This document shows, piece by piece, positions 3,251 to 39,207 of a DNA stretch of 64,000 bases. Position numbers and translations under genes: made by a program. Under the pieces are notes generated by a model. That model saw only the letters and a list, made by a program, of their open reading frames with translations. It was not told where the DNA came from and did not search any database. The stretch lies in contig OX597816.1 in NCBI GenBank assembly GCA_951406725.2, positions 20,088,001-20,152,000 of the forward strand, in the 5' to 3' direction. Source of the DNA: Octopus vulgaris. Its lineage: Eukaryota. Numbering within the stretch: position 1 is the first letter of the stretch; the number at the start of each line of letters is the position of its first letter.

Positions 3251-3569
3251 CTTTATAGACAATAGTCTTTTCTTTAATTTAATTTTTTATTATCCATCTG
3301 GACTATTCATTTCTGCACGCTAATTTTATTTTTAATTTATTCCCATTCATGTGAAACCACTTATTCAAGTTCAAATCATTGATGCAATGTTATACCAATT
3401 GCTATTTTTACTTTTGTTATGTTACGATTATATTATACTTTAGTTTGATTTTAATTATTACTTACTACATATAATTCAATTGTTATTATTATTTTTATTG
3501 TTAAAGTGAAAGTATCTGACATAAAATAGAGAAACGTTTTTGTTTCACTTTTAACACTTAATACTGAAA

Positions 3570-3905
3570 TAGTGGAGAAAATATGATATTGCTATGGGCT
3601 CGCTCTAGGCAAGAAGCTGAACATTTCTTTTCCCCATGAAACTACATGGACCCTAAGGAAGGCATGTGTAAAATTTGAATGGAATTGGTTGTGTAGTTCT
3701 CAAGTTTTAGAGAATCGTAGTGGAGATATTGTTGTGGGCTCGCCCTAGGCAAAATGGTAAAAAAAGGTTTTTGCTGATGACACTCCCGGGACCTTAAGTA
3801 AGGCATGTGTAAAATTTTAATGAAATTGGTTGTGTAGTTCCCAAGTTTTAGGGAAACAGACAGACAGACAGACACACATTCTCAGTTTTATATATATAAA
3901 GATTA
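3570..3905 (+). mobile_element. Non-autonomous Helitron/Helentron-type (DINE/HINE-like) element 3' part with internal duplication
   Basis: Two ~140-bp direct copies (…AAGGCATGTGTAAAATTT…AATTGGTTGTGTAGTT…), then (ACAG)n and TTTTATATATATAAAGAT end. Confidence 0.5.
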
Positions 3906-34800: not shown

Positions 34801-35619
34801 CCCATTTATGGAGCATGACATAAATTTGAATATATAGTTATTTCAATGTCATTTAAAGTAAATACAACTGCAAAAATGAAAGCAAAAGTCATGATTTAAG
34901 TAACTTCAGTAAATGATAAGCATCAAACGTGATCAACCGTCACTATTTTCAATCAGTTTCAAATGTCATGATGATGATGGAAATGTCATTTATAAAATTA
35001 GATGTTAAGAAACAACATATTTTGTGGTCCTTAACACTATACATGTCTCATATTTGTGGAATTTAACTGAAGATATGCCCATACTTTGCTTAATATAGTG
35101 TGACTATCATTGCAATTAGATGAGACATGTTTTGTTAAACTATTAAACTGCATTAAAAAATTGGTATTTTGAATGTGCTTTTAATGTTTAATGGGGAGGT
35201 TATATGAGTCAAGGTCCCTTTTCGTCAAGAATGATCAAAGAACTATAAAAAGAACTTCATGGTATGTATGCTCTTTATGGAATTTTGCCATCACATATCT
35301 GCATTTGCTTACTTTATATCGGTTGTCTATTCTTATATCTGTTGTCTATTCTTATAATGGTGACAAATGGCTCAAATATACTTTGTATTTCAGAAATGTA
35401 ACCCGTTGTGATAAAAGACAATGTAAAAACAGCCCCGATGTCTTTTTATTTCTGGATGTGGTAGTAAAATAAAATCACAGATTTCGTAAAGAAAGCTTAC
35501 TTTACTTCCTTACTTTAGCATTAAACTGGGTGACAACACAAAGCCTGGGTGACAGATTCAAATACTTAAGTAGAAAGTTTCCAGTTTTGTCTTGTGTTTG
35601 ATGGGCTACTTAACTGGTA

Positions 35620-35702
35620 GGTCTGCAAAATTTCAACCCCTCCTCCACGGGGAGCAGACTGGGCAACGCGAGCACAGCAAGCCAGCTGTGCTAGCGTGCT
35701 AC
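35620..35702 (+). ncRNA. HDV-like ribozyme fold (3' strand of P2 missing)
   Basis: P1 GGTCTGC/GCAGACT with G1-U wobble, P3 CCCC/GGGG, L3 TCCTCCAC, GG for P1.1, long P4 hairpin, candidate catalytic C at 35699. Confidence 0.7.
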
Positions 35703-36142
35703 AAGAAGCAAAAACGACCAGTATCGAAGCCTATGTCATCAAAGACCAACTAAGATGGAGCGGCCACGTGGTTAGAATAACTGACGAACGACTTCCCAAA
35801 CAGATCTTCCACTCCCAACTCAAAGACGGCAAGCGTAGAAAAGGAGGCCAGAAGAAACGCTACAAGGACTCCCTGAAAACGAACCTCAAAAAGTGTGACA
35901 TCGACTTCAATTACTGGGAGGAAACGGCAAAAAACAGACCACTCTGGAAAACCACCATCCATGAGGGAACGGCGACTTTCGAGTCGAAAAGGTCTGCAGA
36001 GCTGGAGGGGAAAAGACGACGATGGAAGGAGCGCCAACAACAACCACGTGCATCTCTCCCTTCCGGCACTAGGTGTCCGCACTGCGTCCGATTTTTTCAA
36101 GCAAGAATTGGTCTTATCGGTCACCTACGGACTCACCAGTAA
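35696..36142 (+). pseudogene. RTE ORF C-terminal fragment with C2H2-like finger
   Basis: QLRWSGHVVRITDERLPKQIF…GKRRKGGQKKRYKDSLK…CPHC…GLIGHLRTH. Confidence 0.9.
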
Positions 36143-36219
36143 ATTTACGCGAAGTCCACCATCCTCGACCTTGAGGGATTGCCATTAAATCACTTAACTG
36201 GTAGCTATTTCAGGACGAG

Positions 36220-36262
<43 letters not shown>

Positions 36263-37555: not shown

Positions 37556-39207
37556 GTTTCTTTATTAGCCACACAGGGCTGCACACAGATAGAACAAATT
37601 ACAAGGTAGAGCTTTTCTTTTGGGGGTAAAAAAAAAGAGAGTGGTAGTTTTTGATCAAAAGGGATCGTAAAAGGAAAGAAAAAGGACAAAAAAAGGGGGG
37701 GGAGAAAAAAATGAATAATAGGGATCGTTATCACAGAAATGTCAATATGAAGTGTAAAGGGGAGGACAGGTGAGGTTTACCCGTGGAAAGAAAAGCCTAC
37801 GGAAAAGACCACGGTAACCTCGGTCATTGAAGTCACATGTTATATTTCTTTTTTTTTTTTTTTTGCAAATAAGCAACTCTCTGTATTAATTTTTATGGTT
37901 CATAGAATCATAGTCAAGGTGGCTTCGTCATTCATACGTGCCATCCTTGCTACATTCACCCATCTTTTTTAAAACATTCACTAGACAAAACTTGCCTCTC
38001 TACTATCACTTTCCTCTTCAAGTGATACTTGAAGAAGTTGATGAGAGATTGACCAGAGAGGAAAGTGTTTGTCTCTAATCCTTTCAGGCGCGTCCACCAG
38101 ATACATTCTTTCGCCATAGCCACAAGTATGATAAAAATAGCTCTTCCTTCCCGTTTGAAGGAAGGAGGCGTGACGATATTAACGATAGACTCGGCTGATA
38201 AACCGACACGTCCCACACATGACAGCAGTCGTTCGACATAAGCCCACAGGTCGGAAATTGCTGGACACTGCACGATTGCGTGCAGAGCGGTTTCGTCGCT
38301 CTGCCCGCATCTCGGGCAGGTCGGCCCCGTGTTTCTCGAGCCATGCCTATAGAGCTTATCCCGAACGGGTAGCGCTTCTCGGTAGCACCGCCAGGCCAGG
38401 GATCTCTGGAAGTTGTCCATAGGTCCCGGGCCGAAAGTCGTTTGAAACAGGCGGGTCAGGTATTCCTCGTCGACGCCCAGGTTTGCCCCGAGCTCGTCGT
38501 CGTACCTCCCCTCCACTAATCCCCTATAGAATGCTTTGGTTGTGTTGAAGTCACTCAAGGTCGACTCGGGACGGCAGAGTTGCTTGAGAGCAACGCGACA
38601 CTCGCGGTGCCATTCGCCCTTCCTCGGCCTCTTTTTGATCCACGACTGCAGTTCGGTCATGGAGACAAGTTGCGGGAATGCGTGCCTCACAAACGGCGAC
38701 CACACCTGTTCACCGTCGTCTACATAGAGCCAGAGATGTCGCAGTCTCAGTGCGTGTCTGCGCATCATCAACCACGGCATGCCCAGCCCTCCTTTTAACG
38801 GGTGTTGACAGCAAATGGATCGCCTGACCATCGGGACGGATCCTTTCCACAAGAAGCGGAAGAGAATGCGTTCTAGTTTGGTGATGGTAGGGTCGGGACA
38901 AGGTACGACGGTCAAGCGGTAGTAGATGATGGACGCGATGTACGCGTTCACCACCTCCGCCCGACCTTTTAGGGACAGTTTCCTCTCGGCCCATTGCTGG
39001 GCGAGAGTGACCACCCTACTCGTTATCTCGTTCCAGTTCTTCTCCATTTGGAGGTCCGGACCGAACCAGACCCCGAGCAACTCAACCGGGCCGTCTGTCC
39101 CAGCGTCCCACGACGGAGGTACTGGTGGACGGCATGGGCTTGCTTCTCCAGGTGCCGAGCCGCAAACCCACTGACTTTTCCCGGTTGATTTTTGCTCCTG
39201 TCACCGC
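37556..39207 (-). mobile_element. 5'-truncated Tx1-clade LINE
   Basis: End of ORF2 plus ~330-400 bp 3' region ending AGCCCTGTGTGGCTAATAAAGAAA; (TAGA)n on both sides. Confidence 0.9.
37956..39080 (-). pseudogene. Tx1/L1 ORF2 C-terminal part (RT thumb + zinc-binding domain)
   Basis: LGVWFG…W.ERKLSLKGRAEVVN…FLWKG…KGGLGMP…CPRCGQSDETALHAIVQC. Confidence 0.9.

Follow-up and report, generated by a model that had tools for sequence, protein, structure and literature searches.

An internally deleted RTE-type copy in Octopus vulgaris, found once, from a family that begins at a predicted HDV-like ribozyme

At 35620-36191 of the window (the whole 64,000-nt stretch of Octopus vulgaris DNA analysed here) the two ends of an RTE-type retrotransposon stand side by side, parent nt 1-77 being fused to parent nt 3380-3872, the last ~490 nt. 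Does such a fusion belong to a bipartite non-autonomous family or is it a one-off, what defines its 5′ end, and when was its interior lost? We consider it probable that the fusion is a singleton, derived by internal deletion from an RTE-type LINE that begins, when full length, at G1 of a predicted HDV-like ribozyme; the copy is without the predicted catalytic C and the 3′ strand of P2 and is predicted to be inactive, and its 3.3-kb loss likely occurred at insertion. The features are as follows, with positions in the window.

35608..35620, + strand: left target-site duplication, 13 bp; its last G is G1 of the element (1-nt microhomology)
35620..35696, + strand: parent RTE nt 1-77, 5′ part of the predicted HDV-like ribozyme, subfamily A type; 93.5% to L033 nt 1-77
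35620..35626, + strand: P1 5′ strand, pairing with 35654-35660, first pair G-U
35637..35640, + strand: P2 5′ strand CCCC, its GGGG partner (parent nt 84-87) deleted
35641..35653, + strand: P3 (TCC/GGA) enclosing the 7-nt L3 TCCACGG, from sequence comparison; A35653 is T in other family copies
35654..35666, + strand: P1 3′ strand, P1.1 GG (35661-62) and the GCAA joining segment, from the Rfam alignment
35667..35696, + strand: P4 hairpin, stopping at the junction, from alignment and folding; J4/2, including the predicted catalytic C (parent nt 79), is absent
35693..35696, + strand: junction microhomology AGCG, 4 nt, where parent nt 74-77 meets nt 3380-3383; ~3306 nt deleted
35693..36142, + strand: C-terminal 149 codons of the single APE-RT ORF; C2H2-like terminal motif at 36074-36136, stop TAA at 36140-42
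36143..36191, + strand: short 3′ UTR and CAT-type tail remnant, from comparison with family 3′ ends
36192..36204, + strand: right target-site duplication, 13 bp, identical to the left

The 13-bp direct repeat is a true target-site duplication (TSD), because empty-site paralogues of the host repeat (L322 and L332, among seven listed) carry a single 13-nt counterpart between the same flanks; the sequence-only reading of this DNA had likewise placed a left TSD directly before the element. It had also seen the 5′ piece run on into RT C-terminal codons, and the frame from 35690 indeed reads ASVLQEAKTTSIE, with its stop at 36140-42. Against the family's majority sequence the copy shows 18 differences over 486 sites (family median 2.5%, 70 copies). 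Contigs of public runs labelled organisms B and D cross the junction between left flank and G1 by more than 40 nt, and the insertion is therefore old and shared. A contig from X1 is identical to the window allele up to 35683; among the matches listed, none of the contigs of public runs bridges the deletion junction. The public runs listed for the sequence include no RNA run, which has no bearing on expression. The insertion is nested in an older dispersed repeat with dozens of copies (35470-35620 plus 36192-36225; 70 matches), and the window copy of that repeat is without ~18 nt immediately upstream of the TSD.

The parent was sought in the genome with 35608-35720 as query. This gave 22 matches including the window, 20 of which were fetched at greater length. 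Those of the 21 others that reach the junction diverge from the window there, the parent continuing from ...GCTAGCG into GCAAACGGGG. Five full-length colinear elements of 3.85-3.89 kb (~3.88 kb), 93-97% alike, begin with the window's 5′ segment; absence of this 80-nt segment from full-length 5′ ends was looked for and it was present in all five, which bears out the first proposal, that the 5′ piece is a genuine 5′ terminus, for this full-length RTE-type family. The parent ORF holds APE (PF03372) and RT (PF00078) domains, seen in two open pieces of L032, and runs from an ATG at nt 613-614 to a stop near nt 3830, leaving a 5′ UTR of ~610 nt and a 3′ UTR of 43 nt. Protein relatives are mostly ~1050-1070 aa with both domains present; no named RTE reference sequence was among the protein-relative matches. 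The single-ORF APE-RT architecture, together with known motifs, suggests that the family is RTE-type. A short 3′ UTR, a microsatellite tail and a TSD are present, as expected of an RTE-clade LINE.

The family comprises at least 185 3′ ends and 22 5′ ends. Tails of 78 family 3′ ends are CAT-type in 45, TAG-type in 27 and other in 6. Two subfamilies (L064-L143), CAT-tailed and TAG-tailed, differ at nine sites and each has its own ribozyme variant, with L3 ending in G and a long P4 in the one and L3 ending in T and a short P4 in the other; L036-L038 look mosaic. Blocks at parent nt 485-575 (~15 of 80 loci) and nt 100-215 (2 of 80 loci) are kept at 70-85% in distant relatives, and these conserved 5′ UTR blocks may be the RTE 5′ UTR domain of PMC5786205. 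L319, an older relative at 73%, has no recognisable ribozyme.

With L036-L038, which share one junction, counted once, the 22 matches represent 20 insertion events. Ten of these start with an intact GGTCTGC, two start with GATCTGC and the rest start at most 9 nt in, and the upstream flanks all differ. Seven of the 20 are 5′-inverted, and in these the second cDNA stops between +1 and about +5. This clustering of 5′ ends implies that the templates ended at G1, for which cleavage by a ribozyme at that position would directly account.

A suitable fold is predicted at the same place. The intact parent can form, from G1 onwards, an HDV-like double pseudoknot with P1 GGTCTGC/GCAGACT, P2 CCCC/GGGG, P3 TCC/GGT, L3 TCCACG(G/T), P1.1 GG, P4 and a J4/2 containing C79, which makes the parent 5′ end a putative ribozyme. 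In intact copies P1 has 7 bp at the 5′ terminus and a purine-pyrimidine first pair. The conserved U, C, C and G of L3 and the GG of P1.1 align with the RF00094/RF02682 consensus, and the C at nt 79 (C-N-A) aligns with the Rfam J4/2 cytosine. P2 can be extended to 6 bp with one mismatch; it is shorter than in relatives and shows no covariation within the family. P3 has two C-G pairs and a U-U first-pair mismatch in family copies and is fully paired in the window copy. Rfam scores the intact copy L024 at 40.2 bits for RF00094 (E 1e-4), below the gathering threshold of 50, and an intact copy at 24.3 bits for RF02682, against a threshold of 44. A descriptor composed after seeing this family detects the complete double pseudoknot at G1 when run on intact copies; of 20,000 shuffles made from each of two copies none matched, and 558 kb of flanking DNA gave 2 matches.

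For an outside comparison we used 80 related metagenome loci, of which 33 with upstream DNA were examined. The core (A/G)CC, 7-nt L3, GG(T/C) was found in 8 of the 33 upstream regions on the sense strand versus 1 on the antisense control. P2 has at least 6 bp in seven of the eight core-bearing relatives, with unrelated sequences (a better partner is visible for L209, L217 and L224), and the first P3 position is paired in all eight (A-U, G-C or G-U), versus U-U in this family; L3 and the GGGCAAC segment of L224 are the same as in subfamily B. Since relatives carry the same core, the canonical register is fixed. Another register, with a 4-5-bp P3 and P2 AGYTC/GGGCT, was rejected: it loses the conserved G of L3 and breaks in subfamily B, and both the relatives and Rfam fit the CCCC/GGGG register instead. 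The P3 of CCCC/GGGG around TCCTCCAC that had been proposed from the letters of the window is only the pseudoknot-free MFE hairpin, CCCC being a P2 strand in the parent; this competing 5-bp hairpin is the pseudoknot-free MFE structure of subfamily A and is impossible in subfamily B.

The core is absent in the three closest metagenome relatives (L205-L207), whose contigs may end short. The descriptor gave no match in 40 of 40 upstream regions of other RTE families in the genome, which therefore provide no covariation data, nor had Rfam a match at the 5′ end of L165. A pattern search of the genome for ribozyme homologues gave four non-family matches, none similar to the element. The eight core-bearing metagenome loci (L208, L209, L211, L217, L219, L224, L247 and L253) are themselves candidate HDV-like ribozymes upstream of RTE-like ORFs, several having a long J1/2, a P2 that reaches 15 bp and just one pair in P1.1.

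Fold and 5′-end positions together suggest that the template RNA was self-cleaved. The parent fold is marginal on four counts, namely its Rfam score under the threshold, the U-U pair opening P3, the 4-bp P2 core and, in subfamily A, the competing hairpin. The 5′ end might instead be set by an internal promoter starting at G, with the HDV-like fold vestigial or serving translation or protein binding. This we judge improbable. The parent's P3 mismatch, short P2 and competing hairpin would suit it, as would the two other RTE families in the genome that have sharp 5′ ends and no HDV or Rfam match; in L1Tc, moreover, Pr77 acts as promoter as well as ribozyme, and cleavage was absent for some well-folded SIDER signatures (PMC4035085). 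However, the element starts on the very base that opens P1, in a G-U pair, while L3, P1.1 and the J4/2 C are constant across both subfamilies as P4 changes in length, and an active R2 ribozyme with a P3 mismatch has been reported (PMC3774820).

What is left of the ribozyme in the window copy can be read against this parent. The sequence-only reading had described P1 at 35620-26/35654-60, its first pair being G-U, together with GG at 35661-62 and a long P4, and these are all present; the opening 96 nt have a folding z of -4.27, 1 of 200 shuffles being as good. Its placing of the 5′ end at G1 of an HDV-like fold agrees with both the predicted fold and the comparison with the parent. It was also right that the 3′ strand of P2 is lost, the GGGG lying past the junction in the parent. 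The C that it took to be catalytic, C35699, is the first base of a Leu codon in the RT coding sequence; the predicted catalytic C (parent nt 79) lies two bases past the junction and was deleted with the 3′ strand of P2. The unpaired A that it called non-canonical, A35653, is the last base of P3 and a substitution in the window copy, the position being T in the family's other copies, as in all contigs of the four public runs examined.

Because the catalytic C and the P2 3′ strand are missing, the relic is predicted to be inactive. On the window copy the descriptor finds the core only, and the RF00094 match is weak, 29.6 bits against the gathering threshold of 50. That the chimeric RNA still cleaves itself with C35699 or C35764 as a substitute is highly unlikely. 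The copy has P1, P1.1, L3 and P4 whole and P3 paired throughout, its junction lengthens P4 as far as a G-C pair, and a relaxed scan gives a weak alternative at C35764 with an imperfect partner (5 of 6 pairs with 35768-73). This alternative, however, is ~100 nt away and of chance quality, within 35660-36200 no C-N-A has after it an unbroken stretch able to pair with CCCC as P2 over at least 3 bp, and the Rfam score drops from the 40.2 bits of the intact copy.

Copies with the same junction were counted across the genome. The junction pattern, with one mismatch allowed, has 1 match in 2.8 Gb, the window itself. There is no bipartite family with this junction, which the sequence-only reading had offered as one of its explanations, and the window copy is a one-off. 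The picture of such a family (SIDE- or Bov-A-like) spreading with this junction has in its favour that both ends, a TSD and a tail are present and that such RTE families are known (PMC5786205); it is nevertheless scarcely credible, for besides the single occurrence, searches with nt 1-113 and ~nt 100-340 return the same ~22 loci, which have their own breakpoints except for one triplicated locus, and the breakpoint of the window copy cuts the ribozyme and keeps coding sequence. Searches with J4/2-P2 (20 matches) and ~nt 100-340 (25 matches) gave no further copy with G1 and no shared junction.

For an independent view of the family, copies were chosen by their 3′ end. The 3′-end pattern has 185 matches; 80 of the first 100 listed were fetched, two apparent duplicates were dropped and 78 were classed. 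Fifty are truncated, 24 inverted, 3 full length and 1 has a colinear deletion of more than 100 nt; some 'truncated' copies conceal short inversions. The 5′ terminus is present in 8 of the 78 (3 full length, 1 deleted, 4 inverted). The 3′ piece begins at parent nt 3600-3630, beside an A-run, in ~15 of 80 copies, and this stretch is likely a stalling or priming hotspot.

When, then, was the interior lost? The 13 colinear events with a 5′ end are 5 of full length, 7 internally deleted with differing breakpoints and 1 with loss of the 3′ end (L042, no TSD). Four of the 13 lost 2.2-3.6 kb with both ends kept: the window copy, L027, L035 and L041. TSDs are not resolvable for L035, L029 and L030. For these four sizes the chance that a random later deletion stays inside the element is 0.15, 0.10, 0.42 and 0.07, and at least 4 of 5 inside under randomly placed later deletions has P of about 0.005, a rough value from five events. 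The retention of both ends in four large deletions favours deletion during integration.

That a full-length copy inserted normally, and that a DNA break in it was afterwards mended through microhomology with the loss of 3.3 kb, is unlikely in our estimation. It would lead one to expect ~30 copies running past the 3′ end for every 4 interior ones, and 1 is observed; L041, furthermore, stops exactly at its tail and has a perfect TSD. The age of the copy, by its differences and its left junction in organisms B and D, would allow for later events, and many long copies, whether they have G1 or not, carry deletions of 60-500 nt. Eickbush and Eickbush favour recombination or repair over template jumps for R2 SIDEs (PMC3414825). 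Among long colinear copies without G1 there are gaps in L184 and L203 and none in L139, so deletions as such are not special to copies with G1. The junction itself is compatible with end joining. The interior was indeed lost at a microhomology, as first suggested, which is the 4-nt AGCG at 35693-96 and not the 12-mer then quoted. At eight junctions read by eye the microhomology is 1-4 nt, mean 2.6 versus 0.70 by chance (P 6e-5); lengths of 2-4 nt are as compatible with later end-joining repair as with integration.

Two further origins were considered and rejected. A trans-switch between subfamilies does not apply, as both halves match the same subfamily: the 3′ piece agrees with the CAT-tail subfamily, the one paired with the A-type ribozyme, in 9 of 9 alleles. 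A spliced retrocopy does not apply either, the deletion ends showing neither GT-AG nor GC-AG in 5 of 5 registers.

Two of the other deleted copies deserve description. L041 (also L285; G000:C25, about 9037680-9037946, minus strand) consists of the first 245 nt and the (TAG)n tail typical of its own subfamily, without a 3′ UTR, in a perfect 13-bp TSD; its ribozyme is complete except for one P1.1 change, and it is a single copy. L027 (also L294; G000:C27:5300001-5300380) consists of nt 4-328 fused to the terminal 55 nt, carries a (CAT)n tail and has a 7-bp TSD; it is SIDE-like, ~380 nt, a single copy, and its P1 is damaged.

In target-primed reverse transcription the endonuclease/RT of a LINE nicks the target and copies the RNA from its 3′ end. 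Loss during insertion, the reading that we prefer for the window copy, would then proceed as follows. A full-length element would have been co-transcribed from host DNA and cut just before G1 by its 5′ ribozyme. Its endonuclease/RT would have nicked the target and begun copying from the 3′ end, to which the TSD and tail point. After ~490 nt the end of the cDNA may have shifted to the same four bases close to the RNA's 5′ end, by a template jump of the RT or by microhomology joining, and copying would have ended at G1. As the sequence shows, G1 was joined to the target through a 1-nt microhomology, with a 13-bp duplication as the outcome; the copy never multiplied, and it now has the differences from the family majority given above.

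A broader reading is that the RTE enzyme holds the ribozyme-bearing 5′ end of the RNA at the insertion site, and that stalled cDNAs are rescued onto the 5′ UTR, colinear (the window copy, L027, L041) or inverted (L026, L039, L077, L128), so that the family is a series of births of bipartite elements. We put this forward tentatively, as a doubtful possibility. Gap-inversions in the 3′-selected sample were primed within the first 333 nt in 3 of 6 cases (P about 0.01, with the interval picked post hoc). Further hints are the four of 13 colinear events that lost more than 2 kb with both ends kept, and a coverage that is nearly flat, from 12 copies at nt 2000 to 8 copies at nt 5. L026 and L077 are independent inverted copies, both primed at parent nt 333.

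Ribozyme-bearing RTEs and their internally deleted derivatives are already known in print. Self-cleaving ribozymes at the 5′ end are reported for six LINE clades, RTE among them, and bipartite derivatives for RTE, Ingi, Vingi and R2, their cause being left open there (PMC5786205). HDV-like ribozymes of RTEs are reviewed in PMC6765202, and Perere-3, another RTE, uses a twister variant (PMC8501958). Like the HDV-like ribozymes of RTE, R2 (PMC3774820) and L1Tc (PMC4035085), the parent version is a predicted double pseudoknot that opens on the element's own first base. In contrast to the known LINE versions it is compact (nt 1-87), with a 4-bp P2 core (R2 ribozymes have a P2 of at least 5 bp; PMC3774820) and a U-U at the start of P3.

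The window copy itself resembles R2 SIDEs, in which a ribozyme is joined to the 3′ end by template jump or recombination (PMC3414825), NARTc/RIME (PMC4035085), and Bov-A and RTESINE2/WALLSI3 (PMC5786205), in having both LINE ends, a deleted middle and a TSD. Those are multi-copy families, whereas the window copy is single; and the R2 and L1Tc derivatives keep the whole ribozyme, whereas in the window copy the ribozyme is cut and 149 codons are left over. Among L1 insertions about 30% are reported to be 5′-inverted (PMC2912911), and the 24 of 78 inverted family copies, with short microhomologies, resemble such twin-primed L1; unlike these, the window copy is colinear, and several inverted family copies skip 0.8-3.5 kb.

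RTE-2_OV, which might be the same family, appears in PMC9115989, and the word 'ribozyme' is absent from its main text; PMC6007223 and PMC9115989 held nothing decisive for this RTE family. No description of the family, and no census of single-copy bipartite RTE insertions, was found in the literature searched, most subscription journals and Repbase being outside its reach.

The window copy is a fossil without function, a failed birth and not a family, and its value is as a pointer to the family. This offers a compact predicted HDV-like ribozyme in an RTE, with two natural subfamilies differing at L3 and P4, and is small enough for a complete census. Fusions of 5′ and 3′ ends arose in it repeatedly, with differing breakpoints, and what merits pursuit is that, across the family, copies keeping both ends are in excess. 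If such fusions form during integration, they bear on the origin of non-autonomous bipartite LINEs and SINE bodies; if the RNA 5′ end is held at the insertion site, this would explain why ribozyme-bearing clades (RTE, Ingi, R2) spawn bipartites.

Some neighbours in sequence and in position may be mentioned. Other RTE families of the genome (L165-L202) have ~45-52% aa identity, some with open frames of 1113-1124 codons, and several of their copies begin at a shared motif that opens with GTCAGGTC and has hairpin potential, often straight after AT microsatellites. In the window, ~1.8 kb downstream of the insertion, a 414-codon open frame on the minus strand (37958-39200) resembles another LINE fragment.
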